A stretch of 64,000 bases of DNA from Balanoglossus misakiensis (Eukaryota; Animalia; Hemichordata). The position numbers and the translations under genes were made by a program. This document shows positions 5,476 to 28,717 of this stretch, piece by piece. The notes under the pieces are model-generated. The model ran no database searches. It had not been told where the DNA came from and was given only the letters and a program-made list of their open reading frames with translations. Numbering within the stretch: the first letter of the stretch is position 1; every line of letters starts with the position of its first letter. Location: positions 372,001-436,000 of the forward strand of contig JBECUI020000027.1 of the NCBI GenBank assembly GCA_040954595.2, in the 5' to 3' direction.

Positions 5476-5528
5476 GTGGGTAAGCTTTGTAGGAAACTAT
5501 TTTTAAAAAGGCATGGAAGAAAATATGA

Positions 5529-5604
5529 ACTCACTCACTCACTCACTCACTCACTCACTCACTCACTCACTCACTCACTCACTCACTCACTCACTCACTC
5601 ACTC
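5529..5604 (+). repeat. (ACTC)19 simple sequence repeat, orphan
   Basis: Follows ATG GAA GAA AAT ATG AAC; downstream there is only a short signal-peptide-like relic (HLRTQSKSSFFLCFSPLLTIF). Confidence 0.95.
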
Positions 5605-6135: not shown

Positions 6136-7313
6136 ATGTTTTCCATCAGACAATTTGTAACTTTTTATTTTCATTTCCAGGACAATAAGAAACAAAGAAG
6201 CAGAACCAGATACAGAGGTATTTATAAGCACCTGGCTCTTTGTTTTCTGCTTCTTCCACCCCTTCTGAGCGGGTGCCAGACAGATCCCCTTAGTAGCGAG
6301 GCCCTTATACTCCAAGTCAACAGCGATAACGAGGAACTCTTAGAAAAAGACCTTCCAAACAAAACTTTTACGATTACCTACTACTCTGGAGAAACCGCTA
6401 CAGAGGTAATACTGTCTTTCCAGTTATCTCCCAAGGCTTCTTTATTGGTGGATGGGCAAATTGTTGAGGATATAACCATGTGGCCATACCCCTGGATCTG
6501 AACACACCTAACACACAGAAAACTATTACTCTAAGGGTCAGGGCCCAAGACGGAACTATGAACGACGAGTACAGTGTTATTGTACATTACCTCTCCTTTT
6601 TCACATTTCTTACAGGAGATGAAGAGTCCCACACCCAGGCAGGTTCCCATATCCTGGCAGGTTATGCTGAATTAAACGCACCGGTTGCCAATGCAACAAT
6701 CTATGCCGTGGCCTTGCCCACCTCTGCTACGCCCCCCGACAATATGGCCGCATTGAAAGCCACCTCTCCTACCTGGCAGACCTACAGCCTAGAGAGAAAC
6801 AAAGCACAATGGATAGTTTTTTTAAACCTTAGTTCTGAAACGCAATACCATATCTACCTAGGGATAGAATATGACGGCGGAGTGTATTATGACAAAAGCC
6901 CCATTTCTATAACTACCCTTGCGCCGCCGAATAGCATATGGCGAATAGGATACGACGGTCTTATTCCTCCTAGCGCTGGAAAAGGGCGGACGATTAAGGC
7001 CTATCTTGGCCAAACCATTATTCTTCCAGGAGCTGTGGCGGATGACAGTCACAATTCACTTACAGAATGGGTGTATTCTCCGTCCTCAGATCGAATATCC
7101 TTATCAGTCGGTTACAGCATTTACACGAATACTCGGTTTGGTAATCGGGCCGAGATAATAGGAGATGAAGCAGCGTTTCCTGCAAACAGCCACAGGTATC
7201 TGTGCTTGTCTTTACCTGAACTGGAAACAGGAGATGAAGGCACTTGGCGAGTAGTAAGTATTTTGGCAACACCCCAAAATATTAATTTTGATTTGGTGAT
7301 TTTGGATAACTAG
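6136..7313 (+). CDS. Lipoprotein, divergent paralog of the array family with no ACTC tract; split by one frameshift near 6470-6480
   Basis: AAGGAG-ATG(6136) and lipobox LLSGC. ORFs 6109-6501 and 6480-7313 join. Motifs match the array family: VRAQDG~VTAEDG, NATIYAV~NATVDFYAV, KAYLGQTIILP~QAYEGQRIILP, FDLVILDN~IDLRIIER. Confidence 0.75.
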
Positions 7314-8490: not shown

Positions 8491-8759
8491 CTTGTCCTTT
8501 CTATGGCTCCCCAAACAGAGTTTTCTTAGCATGCTGTCCTAAAGCTGCTCTCCTAAAGCCAACCCCAAAATCCAGCTCCACCCCGGTGTGTGTGAAGCCA
8601 GACCAATGTAGATTCAAACAATTGCTTACAGCATTACAGCCCTGCCCTCCACGAGATAGCATGTGGATAAAATCTACCCCGTCGGCGAGGCTTTCAAACT
8701 GGTTTTTTTCTACAGAAGACCATTTCTCCCCCTTAGCAAATAGAGATAACACCCCCCCC

Positions 8760-8788
8760 TTGATAAAATCCAGATAAGGAGATAGACT
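8760..8788 (+). promoter_or_regulatory. Sigma70-like promoter repeated in front of each array gene
   Basis: TTGATA-17 nt-TAGACT preceded by a poly-C run of variable length. Equivalent motif in units 2-9, with a 1-nt shorter spacer in degenerate unit 8. Confidence 0.65.
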
Positions 8789-8856
8789 GGAAAACAGATG
8801 CAAATCTAGTAAACTAAAGCCTTGTAAGAGGCTATTTTTAAGGAGGCATACCAAAG

Positions 8857-10049
8857 ATGATTAGCAATTTAAGGAAACTCACTCACTCACTCACTCACTC
8901 ACTCACTCACTCACTCACTCACTCACTCACTCACCAACTCTTGCGCGTTAGGACTTCAAAGAAAGCCTAATTCCCTTCGCCGTTTTTCCCCGTTAAAAGC
9001 AATACTTTTCTGTTTAATCCCAGCACTTTTCCTGACAAGCTGCGGCCCCACCGGTCCAAGTCGAGAAACCCTCATAACAACTTTGACCATCAACGGCCTG
9101 GAGGGAGCGGCAACAGTTGATGAAACCAAAGCCGTTTTTTCTTTTGATAAACTCGATCCCAGTATGATAAGCACCTTTGACCTCAGAGTATCCCCCGGGG
9201 CCCACGGTTACCCATGCCGACGGTACCGCTCTGACAGCTGAGAATCTTGTTCTTGGCGAGGAGTTCCCCGTGCTCGTTACCGCAGAGGATGGACTTACTA
9301 CCCAAACCTACACCCTATTAATTACCGGAGATATTTTCATTACCAACAAATACAGCAACGGCTACTATGTCTGGTTTGACCTAACCTTACATCAAAACGC
9401 TACGGTGGATTTCTACGCTGTAGAAGAAGGAACAACCCTGCCCAGCGCCGTTTCCGTGGCGGCCATGACTGACACCGATGGCGACCAAGCCGTCGACGGT
9501 CAACACTTCAGAGATGACTTGGTTGCCGGGGAACCCCACCGGATTGTTCTCTACAACCTGGACACTTCCAAAAACTACGATATTGGCAGCTATTTCAGTG
9601 ATGCTAAGTATCCCGGCTCTCACGCCGCTGTATTGACACAGATGACTACAGCCGCAGAACCCAGCACCACGGGCAAGGTGGTTTGGCAGGCTTACGAAGG
9701 GCAGCGAATCATTCTGCCGCCTGCAAGGTTGTTGTCAAATAACGATATACCTGCTGGAACAACCGAAACTCAGTCTCTTGCCACACGAAAAACTACAGCA
9801 GAGGGAGAGGAAGTCATCTACAGAAGTATATATGTACTCACTCCAAATTCATATTTCAATGGCGCTGATCACAAGCTAGCTATTCATCAGACTATAGAGG
9901 TTATTATTGATTCTATGGGACATTATTTCATAAATTTTACAGATGTTATGAAATCACAAGAAGGCATATATTGGTTTCGATGGACGTCAGAAGACCAGGG
10001 TACCGATTCCCCCGATGACTATATTGATTTACGCATCATAGAAAGGTAG
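8857..10049 (+). CDS. Phase-variable lipoprotein, array unit 1 ((ACTC)14 at 8877-8932, OFF; extra +1 C near 9201)
   Basis: AAGGAGG-ATG ATT AGC AAT TTA AGG AAA, then the tract, then TNSCALGLQRKPNSLRRFSPLKAILFCLIPALFLTSC lipobox in a shifted frame. GGGGCCCACGG here versus GGGGCCACGG in the other copies. Confidence 0.85.
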
Positions 10050-10495
10050 TCTTTGTCTCAGCAGGGGATGTGCCGTTCTCATGCTGGGACGGCTGCCAAG
10101 AATGCCATGGAGAAAAGAAAGACTCCCGTTGGGGCCAAAATGATGACTTTTCAGTAACTTCCAGGCCTAAGCAGTCCCTCGGAGACTAGAGGGAGTCAAA
10201 ACGATAAGAAGAATCTGCTTACTCCCCACCCCTGAAGGCCCTAGGGCAGGCTTTCTGGGGAGTGCCCGCTCCCAGATGCCTTAAAAACCTTAGCCAGCAC
10301 CCTAATTCCCTATGGCTACTACGCTTTTTCTCAAGTTACTGACCAAAGAACAGACCATTTCTCCCCTTACCAAACAATAAAGAGATAATACCCCCCCCTT
10401 GATAAAATCCAGATAAGGAGATAGACTGGAAAACAGATGCAAATCTAGTAAACTAAAGCCTTGTAAGAGGCTATTTTTAAGGAGGCATACCAAAG

Positions 10496-11696
10496 ATGAT
10501 TAGCAATTTAAGGAAACTCACTCACTCACTCACTCACTCACTCACTCACTCACTCACTCACTCACTCACTCACTCACTCACTCACCAACTCTTGCGCGCT
10601 AGAACCCCAAAGAAAGCCTAATTCCCTTCGCCGTTTTTCCCCGTTAAAAGCAATACTTTTCTGTCTAATCCCAGCACTTTTCCTGACAAGCTGCGGTCCC
10701 ACCGGTCCGAGCCGTGAAACCCTCATAACAACTTTGACCATCAACGGCCTGGAGGGAGCGGCAACAGTTGATGAAACCAAAGCCGTTTTTTCTTTTGATA
10801 AACTAGACTCAGGTGCGGTAAGCACCTTTGACCTCAGCGTATCCCCCGGGGCCACGGTTACCCATGCCGACGGTACCGCTCTGACAGCTGAGAATCTTGT
10901 TCTTGGCGAGGAATTCCCCGTGCTCGTTACCGCAGAGGATGGACTTACTACCCAAACCTACACCCTATTAATTACCGGAGATATTTTCATTACCAACAAA
11001 TACAGCAACGGCTACTATGTCTGGTTTGACCTAACCTTGCATCAAAATGCGACGGTGGATTTCTACGCAGTAGAAGAAGGCACTACCCTGCCCAGCGCCG
11101 CTTCCGTTGCGGCCATGACTGACACCGATGGCGACCAAGCCGTCGACGGTCAACACTTCAGAGATGACTTGGTTGCCGGGGAAGCCCACCGTATTGTTCT
11201 CTACAACCTGGACACTTCCAAAAACTACGATATTGGCAGCTATTTCAGTGATGCTAAGTATCCCGGCTCTCACGCCGCTGTATTGACACAGATGACTACA
11301 GCCGCAGAACCCAGCACCACGGGCAAGGTGGTTTGGCAGGCTTACGAAGGGCAGCGAATCATTCTGCCGCCTGCAAGGTTGATGTCAAGGAATGATATAA
11401 CTACTGGAACCAAACCTCATGCTCTTCATGTGAAAAAAACTACGGCAGAGGGGGAGGAAGTCATCAAGAAGAATTTATATTTTATATTTTCTGATTCTTA
11501 TACGATCGGCAGTGATTACAACCAAGCTATTCATCAGACTATAGAGGTTATTATTGATCCTAGGGGACATTATTTCATAAATTTTACAGATGCTATGAAA
11601 TCACAAGAAGGTATATATTGGGTTCGATGGTCGTCAGCATTGGACGATACCGATTCCCCCGATGACTATATTGATTTGCGCATCATAGAAAGGTAG
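10496..11696 (+). CDS. Phase-variable lipoprotein, array unit 2 ((ACTC)17 at 10516-10583, OFF)
   Basis: Intact frame from tract to stop; ATG is out of frame with it. Confidence 0.9.
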
Positions 11697-12159
11697 TCTT
11701 TGTCTCGGCAGGGAATGTGCCGTTCTCATGCTGGGACGGCTGCCAAGAATGCCATGGAGAAAGAAATGCCATGAAGAAAGAAAAGAAAGGCTCCCCTTGG
11801 GGCCCAAATGATGACTTTCCAGCAACTTCTAGGCCTAAGCAGTCCCTCGGGGACTAGAGGGAGTAAAAACGATAAGAAGAATCTGCTTACTGGTACCCCA
11901 AAAGCCCTAGAATAGGCTTTCGGGGTGTGCCCGCTCCCAGATGCCCGGGAAACCCTAGCCAGCACCCTAATTCCCTATGGCTACTACGCTTTTTCTCAAG
12001 TTACTGACCAAAGAACAGACCATTTCTCCCCTTACCAAACAATAAAGAGATAACACCCCCCCTTGATAAAATCCAGATAGCGAGATAGACTGAAGCTTAA
12101 GTTCAAATCTAGTAAACTAAAGCCTTGTAAGAGGCTATTTTTAAGGAGGCATACCAAAG

Positions 12160-13342
12160 ATGATTAGCAATTTAAGGAAACAAACTCACTCACTCACTCA
12201 CTCACTCACTCACTCACTCACTCACTCACTCACTCCCCAGCTCTTGCGCGCTAGAACTCCAAAGAAAGCCTAATTCCCTTCGCCGTTTTTCCCCGTTAAA
12301 AGCAATACTTTTCTGTATAATCCCAGCGCTGTTCCTGACAGGCTGCGGCAGCCCCACTCCGAGCAGTGAAGCCCTCATAACAACTTTGACCATCAACGGC
12401 CTGGAGGGAGCGGCAACAGTTGATGAAACCAAAGCCGTTTTTTCTTTTGATAAACTCGACTCCGGTGCGGTGACCGCCTTTGACCTCAGCGTATCCCCCG
12501 GGGCCACGGTGACCCATGCCGACGGTACCGCTCTGACAGCTGAGAATCTTGTTCTTGGCGAGGAATTTCCCGTGCTCGTTACCGCAGAAGATGGGCTTAC
12601 TACCCAAACCTACACCCTGTTAATTACTGGAGATATTTTCATTACCAACAAATACAGCAACGGCTACTATGTCTGGTTTGACCTAACCTTGCATCAAAAC
12701 GCTACGGTGGATTTCTACGCAGTAGAAGAAGGCACTACCCTGCCCAGCGCCGCTTCCGTGACGGCCATGGATGACACCGATGGCGACCAAGCCGTCGACG
12801 GTCAACACTTCCGAGATGCTTTGGTTGCCGGGGAACCCCACCGGATTGTTCTCTACAACCTGGACACCTCCAAAAACTACGATATTGGCAGCTATTTCAA
12901 CGATGGTAAGTATCCCGGCTCTCACGCCGCTGTATTGACACAAATGACTACAGCCGCAGAACCCAGCACCACGGGCAAGGTGGTTTGGCAGGCTTACGAA
13001 GGGCAGCGAATCATTCTGCCGCCTGCAAGGTTATTGTCAAATAACGATCTATCTGGACAAGATACGCACGTACTTTCCGTACGGAGAACTGTGGCAGGAG
13101 TGGAGGAGAACCTTTATGCTGTATATGAATTCATTCCAGGTACCTATCAAGCAGGCTCTGATTTCACCCGTTACGGCACAGCTGCTCAGACTATAGAGAT
13201 TATTATTGATCCTCTGGGATATTATTTCATGAATTTTACAGATGCTATGAAATCACAAGAAGGCATATATTGGGTTCAAAGGTCAGTGGGAGGTACCGAT
13301 TCCCCCGATGACTATATTGATTTGCGCATCATAGAAAGGTAG
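12160..13342 (+). CDS. Phase-variable lipoprotein, array unit 3 (ACAA+(ACTC)13 at 12184-12235, OFF)
   Basis: Lipobox FLTGC; intact downstream frame; ATG offset 76 nt, not a multiple of 3. Confidence 0.9.
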
Positions 13343-13789
13343 TCTTTGTCTCAGCAGGGGATGTGCCGTTCTCATGCTGGGACGGCTGCCAAGGATGCCA
13401 TAAAGAGAGAAAAAAAGGCTCCCCTTGGGACCCTCATGATGACTTGACAGTAACTTCCCAGGCTTAATCAGTCCCTCGGAGACTAGAGGGAGTAAAAACG
13501 ATAAGAAGAATCTGCTTACTGGTACCCCCAAAGCCCTAGGATAGGCTTTCGGGGTGTGCCCTCTCCCAGATGCCTTGAAAACCTTAGCCAGCACCCTAAT
13601 TCCCTATGGCTACTACGCTTTTCTCAAGTTATTGACCAAGAAAAGATCATTTCACCCCCTTACCAAACAATAAAGAGATAACACACACCCCCTTGATAAA
13701 ATCCAGATAGCGAGATAGACTGAAAGTTAAGTTCAAATCTAGTAAACTAAAGCCTTGTAAGAGGCTATTTTTAAGGAGGCATACCAAAG

Positions 13790-14973
13790 ATGATTAGCAA
13801 TTTAAGCAAACTCACTCACTCACTCACTCACTCACTCACTCACTCACTCACTCACTCACCAACTCTTGCGCGCTAGAACTCCACAGAAAGCCTAATTCCC
13901 TTCGCCGTTTTTCCCCGTTAAAAGCAATACTTTTCTGTCTAATCCCAGCACTTTTCCTGACAAGCTGCGGCCCCACCGGTCCAAGTCGAGAAACCCTCAT
14001 AACAACTTTGACCATCAACGGCCTGGAGGGAGCGGCAACAGTTGATGAAACCAAAGCCGTTTTTTCTTTTGATAAACTCGATCCCAGTATGATAAGCACC
14101 TTTGACCTCAGAGTATCCCCCGGGGCCACGGTTACCCATGCCGACGGTACCGCTCTGACGGCTGAAAATCTTCTTATCGGCGAGGAATTCCCCGTGCTCG
14201 TTACCGCAGAGGATGGACTTACTACCCAAACCTACACCCTGTTAATTACTGGGGATATGCTCATTACCAACAAATACAGCAACGGCTACTATGTCTGGTT
14301 TGACCTAACCTTGCATCAAAACGCTACGGTGGATTTCTACGCAGTAGAAGAAGGAACGACCCTACCCAGCGCCGCTTCCGTAGCGGCCATGGATGACACC
14401 GATGGCGACCAGCCCGCCGACGGTCGGCACTTCAGAGATGCCTTGATTGCCGGGGAACCCCACCGTATTGTTCTCTACAACCTGGACACTTCCAAAAACT
14501 ACGATATTGGCAGCTATTTCAGTGATGCTAAGTATCCCGGCTCTCACGCCGCTGTATTGACACAGATGACTACAGCCGCAGAACCCAGCACCACGGGTAA
14601 GGTGGTTTGGCAGGCTTATGAAGGGCAGCGAATCATTCTGCCGCCTGCAAGGTTGTTGTCAAATAATGATCTATCTGCTGGAACATCCGAAACTCAGTCT
14701 CTTGCCACACGAAAAACTACAGCAGAGGGAGAGGAAGTCATCTACAGAAGTATATATGTACTCACTCCAAATTCATATTTCAATGGCGCTGATCACGAGC
14801 TAGCTATTCATCAGACTATAGAGGTTATTATTGATTCTATGGGACATTATTTCATAAATTTTACAGATGTTATGAAATCACAAGAAGGCATATATTGGTT
14901 TCGATGGACGCCAGTCCTTCTCGGTACCTTGTCCCCCGATGACTATATTGATTTGCGCATCATAGAAAGGTAG
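13790..14973 (+). CDS. Phase-variable lipoprotein, array unit 4 ((ACTC)12 at 13810-13857, OFF)
   Basis: Intact downstream frame; ATG offset 68 nt. Confidence 0.9.
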
Positions 14974-15419
14974 TCTTTGTCTCGGCAGGGGATGTGCCGT
15001 TCTCATGCTGGGACGGCTGCCAAGAATGCCATGGAGAAAGAAAAAAAAGGCTCCCCTTGGGGCCCAAATGATGACTTGACAGTAACTTTCCAGGCTTAAT
15101 CAGTCCCTCGGGGGCTAGAGGGAGTAAAAACGATAAGAAGAATCTGCTTACTGGTATCCCCAAAGCCCTAGGACAGGCTCTCGGGGTGTGCCCGCTCCCA
15201 GATGCCCGGGAAACCCTAGCCAGAACCCTAATTCCCTATGGCTACTACGCTTTTTCTCAAGTTATTGACCAAAGAACAGACCATTTCTCCCCTTACCAAA
15301 CAATAAAGAGATAACACCCCCCCTTGATAAAATCCAGATAAGGAGATAAACTGAAAGTTAAGTTCAAATCTAGTAAACTAAAGCCTTGTAAGAGGCTATT
15401 TTTAAGGAGGCATACAAAG

Positions 15420-16612
15420 ATGATCAGCAATTTAAGGAAACTCACTCACTCACTCACTCACTCACTCACTCACTCACTCACTCACTCACTCACTCACTCA
15501 CCAACTCTTGCGCGCTAGAACTCCAAAGAAAGCCTAATTCCCTTCGCCGTTTTTCCCCGTTAAAAGCAATACTTTTCTGTATAATCCCAGCGCTGTTCCT
15601 GACAGGCTGCGGCAGCCCCACTCCGAGCAGTGAAGCCCTCATAACAACCTTGACCATCAACGGCCTGGAGGGAGTGGCAACAATTGAGGGAACCAAAGCC
15701 GTTTTTTCTTTTGATAAACTAGACTCAGGTGCGGTGACCGCCTTTGACCTCAGCGTATCCCCCGGGGCCACGGTGACCCATGCCGACGGTACCGCTCTGA
15801 CGGCTGAAAATCTTCTTATCGGCGAGGAATTCCCCGTGCTCGTTACCGCAGAGGATGGACTTACTACCCAAACCTACACCTTATTGATTACCGGGGATAT
15901 TTTCATTACCAACAAATACAGCAACGGCTACTACGTCTGGTTTGACCTAACCTTGCATCAAAATGCTACGGTGGATTTCTACGCAGTAGAAGAAGGCACT
16001 ACCCTACCCAGCGCTGCTTCCGTAGCGGCCATGGATGACACCGATGGCGACCAAGCCGTTGACGGTCAACACTTCAGAGATGACTTGGTTGCCGGGGAAT
16101 CCCACCGTATTGTTCTTTATAACTTGGACACCTCCAAAAACTACGATATTGGCGGCTATTTCAGTGATGGTAAGTATCCCGGCTCTCACGCCGCTGTATT
16201 GACACAGATGACTACAGCCGCAGAACCCAGCACCACGGGTAAGGTGGTTTGGCAGGCTTACGAAGGGCAGCGAATCATTCTGCCGCCTGCAAGGTTGTTG
16301 TCAAATAATGATCTTGCTGGAACATCCCTCTCTCATTCTCTTAATGTGCAAAAAACTACGGCAGAGGGGGAGGTAGTCATCTATGGCAGTATATTTATAT
16401 TCATTCCAGGTACTTATCAAATTGGCTCTGATTACGACTCAGCTGTTTATCAGACTGTAGAGATTATTATTGATTCTAGGGGACATTATTTCATAAATTT
16501 TACAGATGTTATGAAATCGCTAGAAGGTATATATTGGGTTCGATGGACGGCAGACGCTCGGGATACCGATTCCCCCGATGACTATATTGATTTGCGCATA
16601 ATAGAAAGGTAG
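15420..16612 (+). CDS. Phase-variable lipoprotein, array unit 5 ((ACTC)15 at 15440-15499, OFF)
   Basis: Intact downstream frame; ATG offset 80 nt. Confidence 0.9.
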
Positions 16613-17060
16613 TCTTTGTCTCGGCAGGGGATGTGCCGTTCTCATGCTGGGACGGCTGCCAAGAATGCCATGGAGAAAGAAAAGAAAGGCTCCCGTTGGG
16701 GCCAAAATGATGACTTTTCAGTAACTTCCAGGCCTAAGCAGTCCCTCGGAGACTAGAGGGAGTAAAAACGATAAGAAGAATCTGCTTACTGGTACCCCGA
16801 AAGCCCTAGAATAGGCTTTCGGGGTGTGCCCGCTCCCAGATGCCTGGAAAACCCTAGCCAGCACCCTAATTCCCTATGGCTACTACGCTTTTTCTCAAGT
16901 TATTGACCAAGAAAAGATCATTTCACCCCCTTACCAAACAATAAAGAGATAATACCCCCCCCCTTGATAAAATCCAGATAGCGAGATAGACTAAAGCTTA
17001 AGTTCAAATCTAGTAAACTAAAGCCTTGTAAGAGGCTATTTTTAAGGAGGCATGCCAAAG

Positions 17061-18240
17061 ATGATTAGCAATTTAAGGAAACAAACTCACTCACTCACTC
17101 ACTCACTCACTCACTCACTCACTCACCAGCTCTTGCGCGCTAGAACCCCAAAGAAAGCCTAATTCCCTTCGCCGTTTTTCCCCGTTAAAAGCAATACTTT
17201 TCTGTCTAATCCCAGCACTTTTCCTGACAAGCTGCGGTCCCACCGGTCCGAGCCGTGAAACCCTCATAACAACTTTGACCATCAACGGCCTGGAGGGAGC
17301 GGCAACAGTTGATGAAACCAAAGCCGTTTTTTCTTTTGATAAACTAGACTCAGGAGCGGTAAGCACCTTTGACCTCAGCGTATCCCCCGGGGCCACGGTT
17401 ACCCATGCCGACGGTACCGCTCTGACAGCTGAGAATCTTGTTCTTGGCGAGGAATTTCCCGTGCTCGTTACCGCAGAAGATGGGCTTACTACCCAAACCT
17501 ACACCCTATTAATTACCGGGGATATGCTCATTACCAACAAATACAGCAACGGCTACTATGTCTGGTTTGACCTAACCTTGCATCAAAACGCTACGGTGGA
17601 TTTCTACGCAGTAGAAGAAGGAACGACCCTGCCCAGCGCCGCTTCCGTGACGGCCATGGATGACACCGATGGCGACCAAGCCGTCGACGGTCAACACTTC
17701 AGAGATGACTTGATTGCCGGGGAACCCCACCGTATTGTTCTCTACAACCTGGACACTTCCAAAAACTACGATATTGGCAGCTATTTCAGTGATGCTAAGT
17801 ATCCTGACTCTCACGCCGCTGTATTGACACAGATGACTACAGCCGCAGAACCCAGCACCACGGGCAAGGTGGTTTGGCAGGCTTACGAAGGGCAGCGAAT
17901 CATTCTGCCGCCTGCAAGGTTGTTGTCAAATAACGATATACCTGTTGGAACAACCGAATCTCATTCTCTTCATGTGCAAAAAACTACGGCAGAGGGGGAG
18001 GTAGTCATCTATGGCAGTATATTTATATTCATTCCAGGTACTTATCTATTCGGCACTGATTACGACCCAGCTGTTTATCAGACTGTAGAGATTATTATTG
18101 ATTCTAGGGGACATTATTTCATAAATTTTACAGATGTTATGAAATCACTAGAAGGTATATATTGGGTTCGATGGACGCATACATATCAGGATACCGATTC
18201 CCCCGATGACTATATTGATTTGCGCATCATAGAAAGGTAG
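17061..18240 (+). CDS. Phase-variable lipoprotein, array unit 6 (ACAA+(ACTC)10 at 17085-17124, OFF)
   Basis: Intact downstream frame; ATG offset 64 nt. Confidence 0.9.
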
Positions 18241-18688
18241 TCTTTGTCTCGGCAGGGGATGTGCCGTTCTCATGCTGGGACGGCTGCCAAGAATGCCATG
18301 AAGAAAGAAAAGAAAGGCTCCCCTTGGGGCCAAAATGATGACTTTTCAGTAACTTCCAGGCCTAAGCAGTCCCTCGGGGACTAGAGGGAGTAAAAACGAT
18401 AAGAAGAATCTGCTTACTGGTACCCCCAAAGCCCTAGGACAGGCTCTCGGGGGTGTGCCCGCCCCCAGATGCCCGGGAAACCCTAGCCAGCACCCTAATT
18501 CCCTATGGCTACTACGCTTTTTCTCAAGTTATTGACCAAGAAAAGATCATTTCACCCCCTTACCAAACAATAAAGAGATAATACCCCCCCCTTGATAAAA
18601 TCCAGATAGCGAGATAGACTGAAAGTTAAGTTCAAATCTAGTAAACTAAAGCCTTGTAAGAGGCTATTTTTAAGGAGGCATACCAAAG

Positions 18689-19876
18689 ATGATTAGCAAT
18701 TTAAGGAAACTCACTCACTCACTCACTCACTCACTCACTCACTCACTCACTCACTCACTCACTCACTCACCAGCTCTTGCGCGTTAGGACTTCAAAGAAA
18801 GCCTAATTCCCTTCGCCGTTTTTCCCCGTTAAAAGCAATACTTTTCTGTTTAATCCCAGCACTTTTCCTGACAAGCTGCGGCCCCACCGGTCCAAGTCGA
18901 GAAACCCTCATAACAACTTTGACCATCAACGGCCTGGAGGGAGCGGCAACAGTTGATGAAACCAAAGCCGTTTTTTCTTTTGATAAACTAGACTCAGGTG
19001 CGGTGACCGCCTTTGACCTCAGCGTATCCCCCGGGCCACGGTGACCCATGCCGATGGTACCGCTCTGACGGCTGAAAATCTTCTTATCGGCGAGGAGTTC
19101 CCCGTGCTCGTTACCGACAGAGGATGGACTTACTACCCAAACCTACACCCTATTAATTACCGGAGATATTTTCATTACCAACAAATACAGCAACGGCTAC
19201 TATGTCTGGTTTGACCTAACCTTGCATCAAAATGCGACGGTGGATTTCTACGCAGTAGAAGAAGGCACTACCCTACCCAGCGCCGCTTCCGTTGCGGCCA
19301 TGGATGACACCGATGGCGACCAGGCCGTTGACGGTCGGCACTTCAGAGATGCCTTGATTGCTGGGGAACCCCACCGGATTGTTCTCTACAACCTGGGACA
19401 CTTCCAAAAACTACGATATTGGCAGCTATTTCAGTGATGCTAAGTATCCCGGCTCTCACGCCGCTGTATTGACACAGATGACTACAGCCGCAGAACCCAG
19501 CACCACGGGCAAGGTGGTTTGGTCGGCTTACGAAGGGCAGCGAATTATTTTGCCGCCTGCAAGGTTGTTGTCAAATAACGATATACCTGCTGGAACAATC
19601 GAATCTCATACTCTTCGTTCGCAAAAAACTACTGGCAGAGGGGGAGGTAGGCAACTATTCCTTATTTTTTCTAATTCCAGGTACTTATCAATTCGGCGGT
19701 GCTTACGACCCAGCTGTTGATCATACTATAGAGATTATTATTGCTCCTCTGGGATATTATTTCATAATTTTAAGGATGTTATGAAATCACAAGAAGGCAT
19801 ATATTGGGTTCGAATGACGGAGGGAGGTACCGATTCCCCCGATGACTATATTGATTTGCGCATCATAGAAAGGTAA
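18689..19876 (+). pseudogene. Array unit 7 ((ACTC)15 at 18709-18768, OFF) with several extra 1-nt indels (pseudogene or sequencing error)
   Basis: Homologous throughout but broken near 19035, 19117, 19397, 19633 and further on; fragments appear as ORFs 19222-19437 and 19358-19720. Confidence 0.8.
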
Positions 19877-20310
19877 GTCTTTATCCTTCCAGGGTAGATG
19901 CCGTTCACATGCTGGGACGGCTGCCAAAAATGCATGGAGAAAAGAAGGCACCCGTTGGGGCCAAAATGATGACTTTTCAGCAACTTCCAGGCTTAAGCAG
20001 TCCCTCCGGGACTAGAGGAGTAAAAACGATAAGAAGAATCTGCTTACTGGTACCCCGAAAGCCCTAGAATAGGCTTTCGGGGTGCCCGCTCCCCGATGCC
20101 CGGGAAACCTTAGCCAGCACCCTAATTCCCTATGGCTACTACGCTTTTTCTCAAGTTACTGACCAAGAAAAGATCATTTCACCCCTTACCAAACAATAAA
20201 TGAGATACCCCCCCCCTTGATAAAATCAGATAGCGGGATAAACTGAAGCTAAGTTCAAATCTAGTAAACCAAAGCCTTGTAAGAGGCTATTTTTAAGGAG
20301 GCATACAAAG

Positions 20311-21430
20311 ATGTTCAGCAATTTAAGGAAACTCACTCACTCACCAGCCTTGCGCGCTAGAACTCCAAAGAAAGCCTAATTCCCTTCGCCGTTTTTCCCC
20401 GTTAAAAGCAATACTTTTCTGTCTAATCCCAGCACTTTTCCTGACAGGCTGCGGCAGCCCCACTCCGAGCCGTGAAGCCCTCATAACAACTTTGACCATC
20501 AACGGCCTGGAGGGAGCGGCAACAGTTGATGAAACCAAAGCCGTTTTTTCTTTTGATAAACTAGACTCAGGTGCGGTGACCGCCTTTGACCTCAGCGTAT
20601 CCCCCGGGGCCACGGTGACCCATGCCGACGGTACCGCTCTGACGGCTAAAAATCTTCTTATTGGCGAGGAATTCCCGTGCTCGTTACTGCAGAGGATGGA
20701 CTTACTACCCAAACCTACACCCTGTTGATTACCGGGGATATTCTGATTACCAACAAATACAGCAACGGCTACTATGTCTGGTTTGACCTAACCTTGCATC
20801 AAAATGCTACGGTGGATTTCTACGCTGTAGAGGAAGGAACGACCCTGTCCAGCGCCGCTTCCGTTGCGGCCATGGATGACGCCGATGGCGACCAGGCCGT
20901 TGACGGACAACACTTCAGAGATGCCTTGATTGCTGGGGAACCCCACCGTATTGTTCTCTACAACCTGGACACTTCCAAAAACTACGATATTGGCAGCTAT
21001 TTCAGTGATGGTGAGTACCCTGACTCTCACGCCGCTGTATTGACACAAATGACTACAGCGCAGAACCCAGCACTACGGGCAAGGTGGTTTGGTCGGCTTA
21101 CGAAGGTCAAAAAATAATTTTCCCTCCTATAAGGTTGTTGTCGAGAGGAAATAGGAATAGGTTGTTTTTCTCAAGAATTGAGGGACAGAACCATCTTCCC
21201 ATTTATATAGTGGTAGACGACAAGGGTACCTGGGGCTGGGGCGGTGCGTATATTGCCGATATTCATAGTACGATGAGCGTTTTTTATGATTCTAGGGACT
21301 ACATCTCCATAAAAATTGAAGGTGTTGCAAAGTCACTGGAACTTCCTATTACCTAAGCACACAGACAGACGAATCCCATGCCCCTTCTGATGATGATAGC
21401 TTTATTGATTTGCAAGTGCTAGAACGGTAG
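20311..21430 (+). pseudogene. Array unit 8 ((ACTC)3 only) with multiple frameshifts and a divergent C-terminal domain
   Basis: Fragments 20492-20728, 20677-21117 and 21084-21356; ends FIDLQVLER-stop at 21430. Confidence 0.8.
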
Positions 21431-21521
21431 TTTTCTCCCATTCCCACAAGGGCCTGGATTTATGAATTTTCTTTTCCATTGTTTGGCTTTGTAGAAAGCT
21501 GACCCTTGTAAAGTTGGGGAC

Positions 21522-21653
21522 TGCGTTAGGGATGCGGAGGGTGGCCGTCAGTCTCTGACTGGCGGCCAGATCCACCCGCCAGTAGGCGGGTGAGCCGTAG
21601 CGATAGCGGAGCCCGTAGCAGCCCGACCCCGGCAAAGCCGGGGGAACGCCCAA
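21522..21653 (-). ncRNA. Probable Flavo-1-like structured RNA or repeat element
   Basis: Minus strand reads TTGGGCGTTCCCCCGGCTTTGCCGGGGTCGGGCT...multiple hairpins...ATCCCTAACGCA. This matches my recollection of the Flavo-1 motif ends (reported from Bacteroidota and Spirochaetota); not checked against a covariance model. Confidence 0.55.
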
Positions 21654-21941
21654 TTCTTTATTTGTCAGATCAGATTTTATTGTCGCTAAGGTAGAGTGGA
21701 AAAGGATTTTTATCTTCTTTTCCTTTTTTAAGCTATGATTTCTCCTTTTACAACCCTGCTCCTGGGAATGCTTTGTCTTGTGAAAAATATGGAGGGAGGG
21801 GGGAGAGATGTATTTCTTTGTGTGATAGAGGGTTATGAAAAAAGCCATCGGGGGAGGGGAGCTTAGGTGTTTTTGATCATATTATTCGATACATTCACAA
21901 TGTGGGGGTAGAATGGTATAAGTCAATAATCAGGAGTGTGT

Positions 21942-22313
21942 ATGTTACGAAAAAATGGATTGTTTCTTTTGGTGATTGCCTTGGCTTTTTCTACTGTGGC
22001 CTGTGAACTTTTTCAAGATAGCATTGGCGAGGGTACGTATTTTGTTGGTGTTTGGCAAGTCAACTCCGGTGATTTAGGCACTTTTACCTTTCTAGCCGAT
22101 GGTACATGGACCCGTGTAGGCGCTAGTGGTGGTCATGAGAATGGAACTTTCAGTGCAACAGGTAATGCCTCCAGCGGTGTCCTTCTATTGAAGTCAGAAT
22201 TATTCTCCTTCATTGCAGGTGAGCATGAGTATGTGTTTAACCCTGAAGGTACAGAGGTTGAGATCACTTGGGAGGCTTCCTTCATCGGGAAATCGGTTCT
22301 GGTTAAGCAATAA
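21942..22313 (+). CDS. Small lipoprotein, tandem copy 1 (lipocalin-like beta-barrel suspected)
   Basis: AGGAG-ATG, lipobox TVAC, motif FVGVW...FTFLADGTWTR. Confidence 0.85.
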   Translation: MLRKNGLFLLVIALAFSTVACELFQDSIGEGTYFVGVWQVNSGDLGTFTFLADGTWTRVGASGGHENGTFSATGNASSGVLLLKSELFSFIAGEHEYVFNPEGTEVEITWEASFIGKSVLVKQ

Positions 22314-22679
22314 TCCAGGAAATTTATCCGACTGAGATATCACAGACCCTAGCAGCCCGACCCCGGCAAAGCTAGGGGAACGCCTAATTCTTTATTTTTT
22401 AGGTCAGATTTTATTATAGCTAAGGTAGAAAGGAAAAGGATTTTCATCTTCTTTTCCTTTCTACCCTTAGCTATGATTTCTCCTCTTAAAACCCTGCTCC
22501 TGGGAATGCTTTATCTTGTGAAAAGCATGGATGGCTTCGGGGAAGTTAGAGTTATATTTTTTTCACAGTATAGGGTTACATGAAAAAATCATTGAGGGAG
22601 GGAGGCTTTAAGGTTTTTTAAATGGATAAATTTATGAGTAGGGGGTAGAATAGTATAAAGCAAATCATAAGGAGTGTGT

Positions 22680-23064
22680 ATGTTACGAAAAAATGGATTG
22701 TTTCTTTTGGTGATTGCCTTGGCTTTTTCTACAGCGGCTTGTGAACTTTTTCAAGATAGCATTGGCGAAGGTACGTATTTTGTTGGTGTTTGGCCAAGAC
22801 AACACAGGTGGGGAAGGCAAGTTTACCTTTCGATCCGATGGTACATGGACCCGTGTAGGCGATATTTCGGGTAATTACGATGGAACTTTCAGTGCAAGAG
22901 GTAATGCCACCAGCGGTGTCCTCGTATTGAAGTCAGATGAAATCTCCTTATTTCCAGGTGAGCATGAGTATGTGTTTAATACTGATGGTACAGAGGTTGA
23001 GATCACTTGGGAAAACTACATACTGGGAGATCTGGAGGGGAAATCGGTTCTGGTCAAGCAATAA
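22680..23064 (+). pseudogene. Small lipoprotein, copy 2, single +1 frameshift near 22795
   Basis: ORFs 22674-22874 and 22714-23064 join at GTTTGGCCAAGAC (extra C); may be a sequencing error. Confidence 0.75.
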
Positions 23065-23222
23065 TCCAGGAAATTGATCCGACCTGAGATAGCATAGACC
23101 CTAGCAACTCGCCCCCCGGCAAGGCCGGGGGGAACGCTCAATTCTTTATTTCCCAGGTCAGTTTTTATTATAGCTAGGGTAAAGTGGAAAAGGATAATAT
23201 AAGCAAATAATAAGGAGTGTGT

Positions 23223-23606
23223 ATGTTGCGGAAAAATGGATTATTCCTTTTTATAGTTGTCTTCGCTTTTTCTATAACGGCTTGTGGACTATTTCAAGAT
23301 AGTATCGGCGCAAGTACGTATTTTGTTGGTGTTTGGGAAGATCCCTTTGGTGGGGAAGGCACGTTTACCTTTCGAGCCGATGGTACATGGACCCGTGTAA
23401 GTGATGTGTGGGGTAATCTCAATGGAACTTTCAGTGCAACGGGTGATGCCTCCAAGGGTATCCTTGTGTTGGAGTCATCATTCCCCTCCCTTTTTACAGG
23501 TGTGCATGAGTATGAGTTCGAACCTGGAGGTAGAGTAGTTGGAATCTCTTGGAATACTATATTACTGGGATTGTTGGGGGTATCGATTCTGGTCCTCAAT
23601 TACTAG
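23223..23606 (+). CDS. Small lipoprotein, copy 3
   Basis: Lipobox ITAC; paralog of copy 1. Confidence 0.85.
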   Translation: MLRKNGLFLFIVVFAFSITACGLFQDSIGASTYFVGVWEDPFGGEGTFTFRADGTWTRVSDVWGNLNGTFSATGDASKGILVLESSFPSLFTGVHEYEFEPGGRVVGISWNTILLGLLGVSILVLNY

Positions 23607-23765
23607 TCCAGGAAATTTATCCGACTGAGATAGCACAAACCCTAGTAACTCCCCCCCCCCGGCCTTGCCGGGGGGAACGCTCAATTCTTTATTTCCAAGG
23701 TCAGTTTTTATTATAGCTAGGGTAAAGTGGAAAAGGATAATATAAGCAAATAATAAGGAGTGTGT

Positions 23766-24149
23766 ATGTTGCGGAAAAATGGATTATTCCTTTTTATAGT
23801 TGTCTTCGCTTTTTCTATAACGGCTTGTGGACTATTTCAAGATAGTATCGGCGCAAGTACGTATTTTGCTGGTGTTTGGGAAGATCCCTATGGTGGGGAA
23901 GGCACGTTTACCTTTCGAGCCGATGGTACATGGACCCGTGTAAGTGATGTGTTGGGTAATCTCAATGGAACTTTCAGTACAACGGGTGATGCCTCCAAGG
24001 GTATCCTTGAGTTGGAGTCATCATTCCCCTCCCTTTTTACAGGTGTGCATGAGTATAAGTTCGAACCTGGAGGTAGAGTAGTTCTAATCTCTTGGAATAC
24101 TATATTACTGGGATTTTTGGGGGGGAAATCGGTTCTGGTCAAGCAATAA
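23766..24149 (+). CDS. Small lipoprotein, copy 4
   Basis: Nearly identical to copy 3 (543 bp period). Confidence 0.85.
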   Translation: MLRKNGLFLFIVVFAFSITACGLFQDSIGASTYFAGVWEDPYGGEGTFTFRADGTWTRVSDVLGNLNGTFSTTGDASKGILELESSFPSLFTGVHEYKFEPGGRVVLISWNTILLGFLGGKSVLVKQ

Positions 24150-24521
24150 TCCAGGAAATTGATCCGACCTGAGATAGCATAGACCCTAGCAACTCGCCCC
24201 CTGGCAAGGCCGGGGGGAACGCTCAATTCTTTATTTCCAAGGTCAGTTTTTATTATCGCTAAGGTAGAGTGGAAAAGGATTTTTTCTCTTGCTTTCCTTT
24301 TTTCAACTATGGTTTCTCCTTTTACAACCTGCTCCTGGGAATGCTTTGTCTTCTGAAAAACACAGATGGCTTCTGGGTTGGTAGAGATATATTTCTTTGT
24401 TTTTGATAGAGGGTTATGAAAAAAGCCATCGAGGGAGGGGAAGCTTAAGGGTTTTGGGTCATATTAAAAGAAGACGGCTGGCTATATAGAGAAGACGCTG
24501 GACCCGCCTGTGAATGTCTTT

Positions 24522-25190
24522 ATCCTACCAGGGGAGATGCTGTTCTCATGCTGGAAGGGACCAAGAAGGCTGGGAGAGAGGAAGAAAAGGCTCCCGTTGG
24601 GGCTAAAATGATGACTTTTCAGCAACTTCCAGGCCTAAGCAGTCCCTCATGAGCTAGCGGGAGTAAAAACGATAAGAAGAATCTGCTTACTGATAACCCA
24701 AAAGCCCTAGGATAGGCTTTCGGGGTGTCCCGCTCCCAGAGATGCCCGGGAAACCTTAGCCAGCACCCTAATTCCCTATGGCTACCACGCTTTTTCTCGA
24801 ATCATTGACCAAAGAACAGACAATTTCTCCCCTTAGCAAGCAATAAAAGGTAGTCTGCATCCTACCAGGGGAGATGCTGTTCTCATGCTGGAAGGGACCA
24901 AGAAGGCTGGGAGAGAGGAAGAAAAAGCTCCCGTTGGGGCTAAAATGATGACTTTTCAGCAACTTCCAGGCCTAAGCAGTCCCTCATGAGCTAGCGGGAG
25001 TAAAAACGATAAGAAGAATCTGCTTACTGATAACCCAAAAGCCCTAGGATAGGCTTTCGGGGTGTTCCCGCTCCCAGAGATGCCCGGGAAACCTTAGCCA
25101 GCACCCTAATTCCCTATGGCTACCACGCTTTTTCTCGAATCATTGACCAAGAACAGACAATTTCTCCCCTTAGCAAGCAATAAAGAGATA
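24522..25190 (+). repeat. Direct tandem duplication (~337 bp) of the array inter-gene spacer
   Basis: ATCCTACCAGGGGAGATGCTGTTCTCATGCTGG begins at 24522 and again at 24859. Confidence 0.9.
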
Positions 25191-25295
25191 ACACCCCCCT
25201 TGATAAAATCCAGATAAGGAGATAGACTAAAAGTTAAGTTCAAATCTAGTAAACTAAAGCCTTGTAAGAGGCTATTTTTAAGGAGGCATACAAAG

Positions 25296-26463
25296 ATGAT
25301 CAGCAATTTAAGGAAACTCACTCACTCACTCACTCACTCACTCACTCACTCACTCACTCACTCACTCACTCACTCACTCACTCACCAGCTCTTGCGCGCT
25401 AGAACCCCAAAGAAAGCCTAATTCCCTTCGCCGTTTTTCCCCGTTAAAAGCAATACTTTTCTGTTTAATCCCAGCACTATTCTTGACAAGCTGCGGCCCC
25501 ACTCCGAGCAGTGAAACCCTCATAACAACTTTGACCATCAACGGCCTGGAGGGAGTGGCAACAATTGATGAAACCAAAGCCGTTTTTTATTTTGATAAAC
25601 TCGACTCCGCTACGGTAAGCACCTTTGACCTCAGCGTATCCCCCGGGGCCGCGGTGACCCATGCCGATGGTACCGCTCTGACGGCTGAAAATCTTGTTCT
25701 TGGCGAGGAGTTCCCCGTGCTCGTTACTGCAGAGGATGGGATTACTACCCAAACCTACACCCTATTAATTACCGGAGATATTGTCATTACGAATAAACAC
25801 AGCAACGGGTATTATGTCTGGTTTGATGTCATCCTGCATCAAGATGCGGTAGTGGATTTCTACGCAGTAGAAGAAGGAACGACCCTGCCCAGCGCCGCTT
25901 CCGTAGCGGCCATGGATGACACCGATGGCGACCAGGCCGTTGACGGCCATCACTTCCAGGATGCGTTGGTTGCCGGGGAAACCCACCGTATTGTTCTTTA
26001 CAATATGGATACTTCCACTAACTACGATATTGGCAGCTATTTCAGCGGTGGTAAGTATCCAAACTCTCACGCCGCTGTATTGACACAGATGACTACAGCC
26101 GCAGAACCCCGCACTACAGGTAAGGTGGTTTGGCCGGCTTACGAAGGGCAAAAAATTCTGCTTCCCCCTGCCCGGTTGAAATCAACAGATGATATCCCGG
26201 ATGGTTCAGGCCTATCTTATAATTTGGAGGGCCAAGCTTCATGGGCTTCCATTTTAGAAATTCTGGATGGTTCATATCAAATAGGTTGGAACTATGATTT
26301 TGTTCTTCATGCCATGTTTTCTATGATTTTTGATTCCACGACTTATCTATTCACCAAAATAGACGGTGTTCTCAAGGCACACACGGCTTTCTATTTTCTG
26401 AGTTTTTCAGATCAGGATATCGGTACCCCCGAGGATTACATTGATTTACAGGTACGGAACTAA
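25296..26463 (+). CDS. Phase-variable lipoprotein, array unit 9 ((ACTC)17 at 25316-25383, OFF), divergent C-terminus
   Basis: Same promoter, RBS, tract and lipobox; intact downstream frame ending DYIDLQVRN. Confidence 0.9.
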
Positions 26464-26926: not shown

Positions 26927-28717
26927 GTGTGTGTTTTAATGAAATGCAGTCATATGAAAATGAAGTTCAATGTTTTAACTGGAATGTCTGGTCTGCGAAG
27001 AAATTTCGGTGCTTTTCCGTCTTTTCGTTTCTGGCAGCCCATTCTTTTTGTTATTCTAGCGACTTTCTACTTAGGAAGCTGTGATTCAGAATCCGGAGCC
27101 ACCTTTACCATCACTCTTACAGGGCCTCAGGACATTGAAGCAGGTGAAGACTTGATATTGTCTGCTACAGCTTCGGATTTGAAGGGAGCTATCGCAACCT
27201 ATCAGTGGAAAGTTAACGGGGAGGTTCAGCACGAAGGAACTGATCTGAATTATACCTTCAGTCAAATAGAGGAAGGGACATACAAAATACAGTGTATGAT
27301 GATTATTGACGGTATTGAGTATGCCAGCAATACGCTGACAATAACGGTAACGGCTTCCCAGCCTGTTGTGCGCATCGCCGGGGGAGAGAGCGTGAGCGCT
27401 AATGAGGATCTGATACTGACTACAACCGTATCAGGTCTAAACGGAGCGGCGGCGACCTACCAATGGAAACTTGACGGGAATGATGTAGCAGGAGCCACCG
27501 GCACGGATTATACCTTTAATCAGCCCAACAACGGCTCATACGAGGTTTGGTGTGTGATGACAGTTGATGGTACTGAGTATACCAGCAACAAGCTGACGAT
27601 AACGGTTGAGCCTCCCCGGCCTGCTGTATCCATAACCGGGGGTGTGAGGGATCTCATTGTGATAAATACAGATGAGACATTTACCGCTACAACTTCTAAT
27701 CTGAACGGAGCGGCGGCGACCTACCAGTGGAAGCTTGACGGGAATAATGTAGCAGGAGCCACCGGTACGGATTATGTCTTTAACCGGCCAGTGCCCAGCG
27801 GTCCGTACAGCATACAGTGCGAAATAACAGTGGACGGTACCGTCTATTCCAGCAACACATTGATGGTAAGGGTTCTTAGGGCCCTGCCTACCGTGTCCAT
27901 AAGCGGGGACGCTATGGTGGTGGCAAATGATAATACAACAATAGCTGCCATAGCGTCTAATCTGGATGGAGCTATTGCATCCTACCAGTGGAAAATCGAC
28001 AATGCAGAAATACCCGGAGCCACCAATCCCCAATATGGCTTTAGCCAGGCGGTGGGAGGGGCCTACGAACTGCAGTGTGAGATCACGGTTTACAACAATG
28101 TCTTTACCAGCAGTGCGCTGCCCGTTTTAGTGATTCAGGTGGGTTCTCCCGGTCCTGGGGGAGGGGTCGTGTTTTATGATGATACCCTGGGGTATGATTT
28201 TGATAATAGCGGAGACATCGATGGATCTGAGAGAACCCTGCTGGCGGCAGATTCTCGATTCTTGGAAGCCGCCCCGTCTGGTTGGTATGGTACGGAAAGA
28301 GATCCCCTTGTTCAGTGGGGAGCTCAAGGGACAGATGTTCCCGAGGTGATAAATTACACGAGCATTTCCGGTGCTCCCAATCAAAAGGAAACCATGGGGC
28401 GTGGAGTCACAGATACCGATGCAATAGTAACTCTCCTGGAGGGCATTCCTGAGACAGACCGGGCGGCGCAGTTGGCCAAGGCATATACCGGAGGAGGTAA
28501 GGACGACTGGTTCCTGCCGTCTATTGGCGAATTGATTATACTGGTCAGTCAAAAAGACCAGGTGGGTGGTATGGACGGCCGGTACTGGTCTACCACCGAG
28601 GGTACCCTTACATTTGCCTGGTATATGCACAACAATAGCATAGGTACATTCAGAAATAACGGAAAGGCAGTCACCGACACAGCCGTGCGTCCTATCCGGG
28701 GGTTTAACGTCCCTTAA
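26927..28717 (+). CDS. Lipoprotein with four Ig/PKD-like repeats and a C-terminal DUF1566/Lcl-type C-lectin-like domain
   Basis: Lipobox YLGSC; four ATYQWK-type repeats; DWFLPSIGEL...YWSTTE...VRPIRGF. Start codon uncertain. Confidence 0.8.
   Translation: MCVLMKCSHMKMKFNVLTGMSGLRRNFGAFPSFRFWQPILFVILATFYLGSCDSESGATFTITLTGPQDIEAGEDLILSATASDLKGAIATYQWKVNGEVQHEGTDLNYTFSQIEEGTYKIQCMMIIDGIEYASNTLTITVTASQPVVRIAGGESVSANEDLILTTTVSGLNGAAATYQWKLDGNDVAGATGTDYTFNQPNNGSYEVWCVMTVDGTEYTSNKLTITVEPPRPAVSITGGVRDLIVINTDETFTATTSNLNGAAATYQWKLDGNNVAGATGTDYVFNRPVPSGPYSIQCEITVDGTVYSSNTLMVRVLRALPTVSISGDAMVVANDNTTIAAIASNLDGAIASYQWKIDNAEIPGATNPQYGFSQAVGGAYELQCEITVYNNVFTSSALPVLVIQVGSPGPGGGVVFYDDTLGYDFDNSGDIDGSERTLLAADSRFLEAAPSGWYGTERDPLVQWGAQGTDVPEVINYTSISGAPNQKETMGRGVTDTDAIVTLLEGIPETDRAAQLAKAYTGGGKDDWFLPSIGELIILVSQKDQVGGMDGRYWSTTEGTLTFAWYMHNNSIGTFRNNGKAVTDTAVRPIRGFNVP

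Follow-up and report, generated by a model that had tools for sequence, protein, structure and literature searches.

A tandem array of nine spirochaete lipoprotein genes with candidate ACTC-repeat switches and predicted V-set-like variable tips

We found nine paralogous lipoprotein genes in tandem in a 64,000-nt stretch of DNA (the window; from contig JBECUI020000027.1 of the Balanoglossus misakiensis assembly). Each gene has a promoter-like site, a ribosome binding site (RBS), an ATG, a pure (ACTC)n tract, an h-region, and a lipobox, and in the assembly all nine are out of frame (OFF). We think it probable that these genes are a spirochaete family, switched at random by slippage in the ACTC tracts, whose variable tips, predicted to have an antibody-like V-set fold, likely bind host surfaces. 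The array is real. Judged from its sequence, the switch belongs to a known class, here with a lineage and layout that are new, and it likely operates. The phase-variable, recombining repertoire of V-set-like tips, as modelled, would be the new element. All coordinates refer to the whole window and to the + strand unless stated.

The nine units share one order of parts: a C-run, the promoter-like site, a short leader with a small hairpin, AAGGAGG, ATG, 20 or 24 nt, and (ACTC)n. The promoter-like sequence is TTGATA-17-TA[GA]ACT, with a spacer of 16 nt in unit 8. In units 1 through 9 the tracts start at 8877, 10516, 12184, 13810, 15440, 17085, 18709, 20331 and 25316 and contain n = 14, 17, 13, 12, 15, 10, 15, 3 and 17 repeats. 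Downstream from each tract are 36-37 codons for a basic stretch, the h-region and then FLT[SG]C. That is, pattern matching with the general lipobox rule found FLTSC or FLTGC after the h-region in all nine units, giving a basic n-region, a hydrophobic h-region, and a lipobox Cys.

There is no in-frame ATG or GTG between the tract and the lipobox Cys in any of the nine units. The single in-frame TTG, in unit 9, is only four codons ahead of the Cys and thus too late for making a signal peptide. Both wrong frames reach a stop within ~12 codons. In every unit the repeat is pure, is not a multiple of three in length, and lies 3' of the start codon near the 5' end of the coding region, and by frame arithmetic one tract-length class in three gives an open frame. 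Eight of the nine units have n = 10-17 (n = 3 in unit 8), and tracts of 10-17 repeats are long enough for frequent slippage. These findings agree with the original prediction, which had described nine paralogous units with exactly these nine tract lengths, each with its own promoter (recognized here by sequence), RBS, ATG, h-region and lipobox, no in-frame start between tract and h-region, early stops in both wrong frames, and a repeat that has no stop in any frame and lies inside the cleaved signal peptide (the latter follows from lipoprotein processing). That prediction also gave n = 1 mod 3 as the rule for an open frame. The rule is right for units with a 20-nt leader, but not for units 3 and 6. 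These have a 24-nt leader and are therefore OFF, not ON as the rule gave. That all nine units are OFF had been missed.

Unit 1 (8760-10049) has its promoter-like site at 8760, ATG at 8857, (ACTC)14 at 8877-8932, an extra 1-nt insertion near 9201, and a predicted V-set-like tip encoded at 9666-10046. Units 2 through 6 are intact after the tract: unit 2 (10399-11696; ATG 10496, (ACTC)17 10516-10583, tip 11316-11693), unit 3 (12063-13342; ATG 12160, (ACTC)13 12184-12235, tip 12968-13339), unit 4 (13693-14973; ATG 13790, (ACTC)12 13810-13857, tip 14590-14970, the modelled domain), unit 5 (15324-16612; ATG 15420, (ACTC)15 15440-15499, tip 16232-16609), and unit 6 (16964-18240; ATG 17061, (ACTC)10 17085-17124, tip 17857-18237). 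Unit 7 (18592-19876; ATG 18689, (ACTC)15 18709-18768) has five further 1-nt indels, probably assembly noise. Unit 8 (20217-21430; ATG 20311, (ACTC)3 20331-20342) has a divergent tip and four 1-nt deletions, several of which are at odds with contigs of a public run (see below). Unit 9 (25200-26463; ATG 25296, (ACTC)17 25316-25383) is intact after the tract, with a divergent tip at 26113-26460.

Two further features of the leaders occur in every unit. Immediately beside the -35 box is a run of 5-9 C (8752-8759 in unit 1); it is possible that this run is a second, transcriptional tuning tract, or it may be homopolymer noise. Directly 5' of the RBS is a conserved 6-bp hairpin followed by ATTTTT (8818-8839 in unit 1), which looks terminator- or attenuator-like.

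The chance expectation for an ACTC tract of n = 10 is negligible (2e-19 per strand). The window has 13 ACTC tracts of n>=3; each is on the + strand and follows an ATG at a distance of at most 24 nt, and 12 of the 13 have a lipobox downstream. The only other tetranucleotide run of at least three copies is one GAGG x3. Four of the 13 tracts, starting at 5529, 51111, 54572 and 58520, lie outside the range of the original prediction. Three of these four belong to a second lipoprotein family (LRR_5, FN3-like and GLUG repeats) that is unrelated to the array and has its ACTC tract at the equivalent position. Two of the three members are in frame and are complete lipoproteins: 51099-53705, with (ACTC)15 at 51111-51170 (868 aa), and 54560-57139, with (ACTC)11 at 54572-54615 (859 aa). 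The third, 58504-61411, is out of frame with (ACTC)17 at 58520-58587. The remaining tract is in a degenerate switch (5448-5765), in which a promoter-like site and an ATG at 5525 precede (ACTC)19 at 5529-5604 and a decayed signal-like frame without a lipobox. Next to it, at 6109-7313, is a distant paralogue of the array proteins without a tract (lipobox LSGC; 23% identity, 21% in the tip), in two open reading frames (ORFs) split near 6480-6501.

The DNA comes from an uncultured member of the Spirochaetia, in agreement with the original prediction of a spirochaete, and this organism has no close sequenced relatives. This follows from a UPF0164 protein encoded in the window, for which the best relatives have 53% identity and the named ones among 102 matches are from Spirochaetaceae, Spirochaetales, Spirochaetia or Treponema. 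One public sequencing run (X1) contains the region (share 0.83); it is possibly the source itself and so not independent. The X1 data are assembled Logan contigs. These span all 30 bins of the array and are broken at 8 tracts. No X1 contig was seen that bridges a tract with another length, and at the short tract of unit 8 contig cover dips and there is no bridging contig. The contigs differ from the window by 1-nt indels in single-copy pieces at 21-23 kb and in the promoter and signal region of unit 8. Because the contigs read otherwise, several of the extra 1-nt indels (one in unit 1, five in unit 7 and four in unit 8) look like assembly errors, and in units 7 and 8 such errors probably account for at least part of the extra frameshifts.

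These indels raise the question of whether the array consists of decaying duplicates or assembly noise, with tracts that have no role in switching. At 19-23 kb the presence of 1-nt indels is proven, units 1, 7 and 8 are broken, the unit at 5525 is degenerate, and the paralogue at 6109 is split. We nevertheless regard this explanation as very unlikely. No tract contains an impure repeat, tract lengths differ in whole repeat units, a second and unrelated family has a tract at the equivalent position, the X1 contigs cover the whole array and are cut at eight of its tracts, and another bacterium has this design with a frame distribution that is far from random (see below). In addition, the part of the gene that encodes the stalk (parts 1 and 2 of the mature protein) is constrained. 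The ratio of nonsynonymous to synonymous substitution rates (dN/dS), pooled over units 2-6 from dependent pairs and without a significance test, was 0.35 in part 1, 0.18 in part 2, and 0.92 in part 3, the tip. Given the low stalk values and the six of nine units that are intact after the tract, the genes are maintained.

The bacterium that shares the design is Neffella xylocopae AC157Xtp. Its complete genome has 34 (ACTC)4-40 tracts in the n-region of the long signal peptide of one secreted family (~430-490 aa, a weak Invasin_D4 match, no lipobox by eye, mostly dispersed loci). The tract lengths sum to all 436 overlapping matches, so no tract of at least six units was missed. Relative to the inferred GTG or ATG start, which overlaps promoter-like sequence, just 1 of the 34 tracts is in frame; the two OFF frames hold 20 and 13 (p=1.9e-5 for an expected in-frame share of 1/3). 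A non-random frame at variable n indicates that the frame is under selection, and with this bias toward OFF the all-OFF state of the array looks typical, not odd. A term search of the species paper (PMC13372188) had no hits.

A GTDB scan for (ACTC)9 gave at least 122 stretches; ~10 of those listed, from several phyla, have a start, a tract and a signal peptide by eye. Single genes of this kind, mostly out of frame, are in metagenome-assembled genomes of Nannocystaceae, Saprospiraceae, Bacteroidota and Sericytochromatia. Among 401 spirochaete genomes, four have ATG + (ACTC)5, and no lipoprotein array was seen in those four. In two of the four (25% GC), a class I methyltransferase gene is preceded by a short leader ORF that contains (ACTC)15-20. 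One frame of the leader ORF ends over the methyltransferase start codon, and this tract is possibly a switch that acts by translational coupling.

The units of the array are recombinant mosaics. Which unit is closest to which depends on the position in the gene: at the 5' end unit 2 is almost identical to unit 6, whereas in the tip unit 6 pairs with unit 5 and unit 1 with unit 4. Units 2 and 6 have 2 differences per ~330 nt at the 5' end and 19-22 per 100 in the tip. In a PHI-like test, 1687 of 3570 pairs of 85 informative sites were incompatible, with nearby sites incompatible less often than by chance (p=0.0005). We rejected a diversity-generating retroelement as the origin of tip diversity; the tips differ by indels and block swaps. 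No reverse-transcriptase-like ORF was seen among the part of the window's ORFs that was scanned. At 24522-25184 the inter-unit spacer is present as two 337-bp copies that enclose no gene, which is likely a scar left by unequal crossing-over. This duplicated empty spacer and four other small lipoprotein genes interrupt the array at 21.4-25.2 kb. The four small genes (21942-24149), between units 8 and 9, are in tandem and lack a tract; their products are beta-rich, ~125 aa, 53-60% identical to the first, and match no family.

There may be more copies than the window contains. A 261-nt core contig has a depth of 168 compared to 7-9 for unique pieces, contig depth not being equal to copy number. 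Loose ends and novel joints in the contigs, also in a second run (X2), show tips that are not in the window. Together these hint at ~twenty copies or co-occurring strains. The further copies and chimeric tips that are suggested here, the strong mosaicism, and nine of nine units OFF would all fit a silent archive. In such an archive the OFF units are mainly gene-conversion donors for one or a few expressed copies elsewhere, in the style of vlsE, tprK and M. synoviae vlhA, and the tract keeps them off. We consider this unlikely as the main function. Every unit still has its complete signal peptide along with the promoter-like site, RBS and ATG, in contrast to known silent cassettes, which lack these elements (PMC4534519). 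The stalk is also under purifying selection, and a slippery tract would be a poor permanent silencer. An archive and the switch can coexist.

The mature array protein is ~334 aa and has three parts. Part 1 resembles cadherin-like/DUF5018 repeats and takes most of the 144 profile matches (E<=0.001) in a library of 1.84 billion sequences. PF12733 was found in 9 of 12 of these matches that were scanned; for the window protein itself E=0.016. Part 2 is a conserved beta-rich domain. Part 3, the tip, is ~125 aa and variable. An AlphaFold2 model of the tip from the nine window sequences (pLDDT 71.8, pTM 0.64) predicts a cysteine-free, nine-strand A'BCC'C''DEFG V-set sandwich. The top Foldseek matches (E from 3e-6, TM ~0.5-0.65) were CAR D1, Nav beta4, myelin P0 (MPZ), CD96, JAML, BARF1, nectin, CD2/CD58, PD-1/PD-L1 complexes, and T-cell receptor (TCR) and antibody V domains. 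In an independent search of 48,161 representative chains, the titles of the 50 best rows all name V domains of antibodies, TCRs or receptors (Z 9.4-10.9, and 11.5 in a second look; 97-117 residues aligned, ~110 of 127; root-mean-square deviation 2.6-3.8 A). Viral structures that matched the model were immunoglobulin (Ig)-fold glycoproteins of animal viruses. None of the fold-search matches listed was a streptococcal Siglec-like binding region (SLBR) or a Siglec, although such proteins may be present further down.

By this model the tip is V-set-like, not canonical. No tip has a Cys and units 1-6 have no C-strand Trp; that is, the B-F disulfide and the C-strand Trp of the V set are missing. Some V-like domains also lack the disulfide (CD2, CEACAM N domains). 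The F-strand sequence QEGIYW[VF]R is in register with DTAVYYCA of antibody heavy-chain variable domains (VH), with Gly and Tyr kept and Asp and Cys not, and matches the tyrosine-corner motif D-x-G-x-Y-x-C only partly. The distant paralogue (6109-7313) has DEGTW in this strand. A tip profile had 28 matches in the PDB at E<=10, all in the Ig superfamily (IgSF; 23 antibody heavy chains, 4 CEACAM5 and 1 titin). Among the alignments shown, two VH were in register over C''-F and CEACAM5 was out of register. The Pfam V-set profile did not match the tip at E<=10. Single-sequence phmmer with three tips against the PDB gave 0, 0 and 5 weak matches, one of them a Fab heavy chain.

Pfam and NCBIfam have no family for the array proteins, there was no full-length homologue among 5034 candidates, and there was no tip homologue among 7997 longer proteins, which is weak evidence. 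The 1.84-billion library matched stalk domains only (144 proteins), as did the metagenome contigs (5 loci), and an ESM Atlas search gave matches only below 0.8. A tip-profile match in 1 of the 401 spirochaete genomes (E=0.005) was treated as chance; nothing interpretable was found on the one strand translated. Within the array, the divergent tip of unit 9 is 37% identical to that of unit 4.

We assigned strand names on the model and calculated mean pairwise differences over units 1-6. Strands A', B and G showed none. The values were low for D, E, EF and F (0.11-0.22) and higher for BC (0.36), FG (0.47), C''D (0.51) and the strands C, C' and C'' (0.44-0.66). On the model, then, divergence concentrates in the loops equivalent to complementarity-determining regions (CDRs) 1, 2 and 3 and in the C/C'/C'' face. 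The GFCC'C'' face is the binding face of V domains (PMC12051499). In three hypervariable blocks of the tip, dN/dS (units 2-6, calculated as above) was 0.98, 1.32 and 1.66. A V-set tip with CDR-like variation was not part of the original prediction, and we find it the more surprising feature. The F strand also has a recurrent Arg: YWFR in units 1 and 4 and YWVR in units 2, 5, 6 and 7, with neither in units 3, 8 and 9. These sequences match or are near the Siglec motif YXFR (PMC13358205), and we take the resemblance as a lead only. No PhiTRX motif was found in the tips.

The tips might instead vary as a coat. In this case the switch would work as described, but variation would serve evasion of predators, phages or host immunity and not a change in binding. 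Variation over the whole exposed face, not in the loops alone, and the bias toward OFF, which fits selection against display, are in accord with a coat. In contrast, a stalk with a terminal V-set domain is adhesin-like, six of units 1-7 have the F-strand Arg in a sequence matching or near YXFR (PMC13358205), and in streptococcal V-set adhesins ligand choice is tuned by loops (PMC9117288). We consider a coat quite unlikely. A further and more tentative proposal is an antibody-like bacterial system, with at least nine V-set binders on Ig stalks, recombination of CDR loops, clonal selection based on slippage, one or few specificities per cell, and ligands on the host that might be sialylated glycans or IgSF receptors, for example. 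Taken jointly this is possible, though we would not expect it to hold in full. The tip may be derived from, or mimic, an animal IgSF domain.

In the mechanism that we favor, random switching of a repertoire of binding tips, each unit would be expressed from its own promoter-like site, RBS and ATG, all of which are present in the sequence. By analogy to opa and hgp, the frame would shift whenever a tract gains or loses a 4-nt unit as the DNA is replicated, and one length class in three would join the ATG to the h-region and lipobox. The stop-free ACTC segment would be removed with the signal peptide, so that the mature protein would be independent of n. A lipid-anchored stalk (a cadherin-like sandwich and a second beta domain) would carry the predicted V-set-like tip, presumably exposed on the surface, and the recombination evident from the mosaicism would reshuffle stalks and tips. 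ON states are likely costly or counter-selected. There would then be few tips per cell, and the population consensus would read OFF. The original prediction of a combinatorial switchboard stands in that slippage phase variation is the best reading of the tracts, but the strong OFF bias speaks against a free 2^9 switchboard and suggests few units ON at a time.

Several results weigh against this mechanism. Tract-length variation at a single locus was not observed, the Logan contigs being cut at tracts. Having none of nine units ON is unlikely under neutral lengths (0.026) and needs selection or an argument from a modal consensus; for the array and the second family together, 2 of 12 are in frame (p=0.18). 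Around 19-23 kb the window contains indel errors, so that single frames may be wrong. The fold comes from a nine-sequence model of moderate confidence, and a single-sequence model of the whole protein failed (pLDDT 42.7). Sequence support for the V set is weak (best E 0.01). A control profile of the middle domain had 43 weak matches, mostly DPP4 copies with ~5 antibody chains, and one of the small lipoproteins had 3 matches and no antibody. Because these controls also draw weak, clustered matches from redundant families, the tip-profile matches are only supporting. Finally, dS in the tip is also raised (0.21-0.37), so that dN/dS near 1 there may reflect relaxed constraint or import of diverged segments and not positive selection.

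The switch resembles several known systems. Opa proteins are outer-membrane beta-barrels encoded at dispersed loci, and their repeat is CTCTT. In Neisseria, the paralogous opa family (11 genes; PMC11868660) is turned ON and OFF by frameshifts in a signal-peptide repeat, and hypervariable regions recombine (PMC4534519). The array, as we read it, is like opa in these two respects and differs in its ACTC repeat, lipoprotein products, tandem layout, and predicted Ig-fold tip. The hgp products are TonB-type receptors. Haemophilus influenzae hgpA/B/C are several paralogues with (CCAA)n in the 5' ORF and slipped-strand ON/OFF switching, with 22-32% ON in isolates (PMC9341677). They share a coding tetranucleotide tract with the array, but are few, not in tandem, and not lipoprotein genes. 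The vlhA genes of Mycoplasma gallisepticum are full-length lipoprotein genes in tandem, each with its own promoter and repeat switch (PMC4534519), and reference titles in PMC11868660 point to combinatorial expression of M. hyorhinis vlp. The tandem lipoprotein layout is common to vlhA and the array, whereas fold and phylum differ, and the vlhA switch is a transcriptional repeat upstream of the promoter in contrast to a coding tract with translational frameshift.

Among spirochaetes, Treponema pallidum tpr and tp0126 vary by repeat length, with poly-G in outer-membrane-protein promoters (PMC7864442), and there is precedent for gene conversion (PMC4534519). Phase variation of surface genes, as proposed for the array, is the common point with T. 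pallidum; its genes have no coding tetranucleotide tract and no lipoprotein array. Streptococcal SLBRs (GspB, Hsa, SrpA) have a V-set fold, variable loops that set ligand choice, and an F-strand Arg (PMC9117288). SLBRs use a PhiTRX motif and CD/EF/FG loops and are part of serine-rich repeat proteins, whereas the array varies in BC, C''D, FG and C/C'/C'' and its tips, being multi-copy, would be a repertoire open to switching. For other Ig domains of bacteria the literature speaks of BIg or I-set-like domains, and it lists IgV from sponges onward (PMC7916673; bioRxiv 10.1101/2020.06.09.141622). The Neffella family shares ACTC in the signal-peptide n-region and a near-total OFF bias, but belongs to a Gammaproteobacterium and encodes unrelated, invasin-like proteins, with no lipobox by eye and mostly dispersed loci. 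Searches of the main text of open-access papers turned up neither this combination nor phase variation by ACTC repeats. In view of opa and vlhA, the architecture is less new than the original prediction claimed.

Other features of the window include a lipoprotein of >1717 aa at 3-5153 on the - strand, divergent from the array, with BspA-type LRR_5 repeats in 147-aa modules. Directly 3' of the array (26927-28717) is a PKD/Ig-repeat lipoprotein with an Lcl_C-like end. A carotenoid oxygenase (RPE65 family, E 3e-101) is encoded at 30086-31690 in this spirochaete. Between the LRR-GLUG genes (53711-54348 and 57142-58234) are intergenic tandem repeats of 57, 192 and 151 bp with G/C runs of 9-14. There was no Rfam match in the window.

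In the papers cited above, the reported surface variation of spirochaetes is by gene conversion and promoter poly-G. To these two routes an opa-like coding switch, here on two families of lipoproteins, would add another. ACTC appears to be a recurrent, stop-free signal-peptide switch across phyla, as in the 34 loci of Neffella, a cultured and harmless bee symbiont that allows a direct test of switching rate and OFF bias. If the predicted tips are as modelled, each would be a natural disulfide-free binder scaffold, and a switchable bacterial V-set repertoire with CDR-like diversity would be a striking convergence on the logic of vertebrate antigen receptors.

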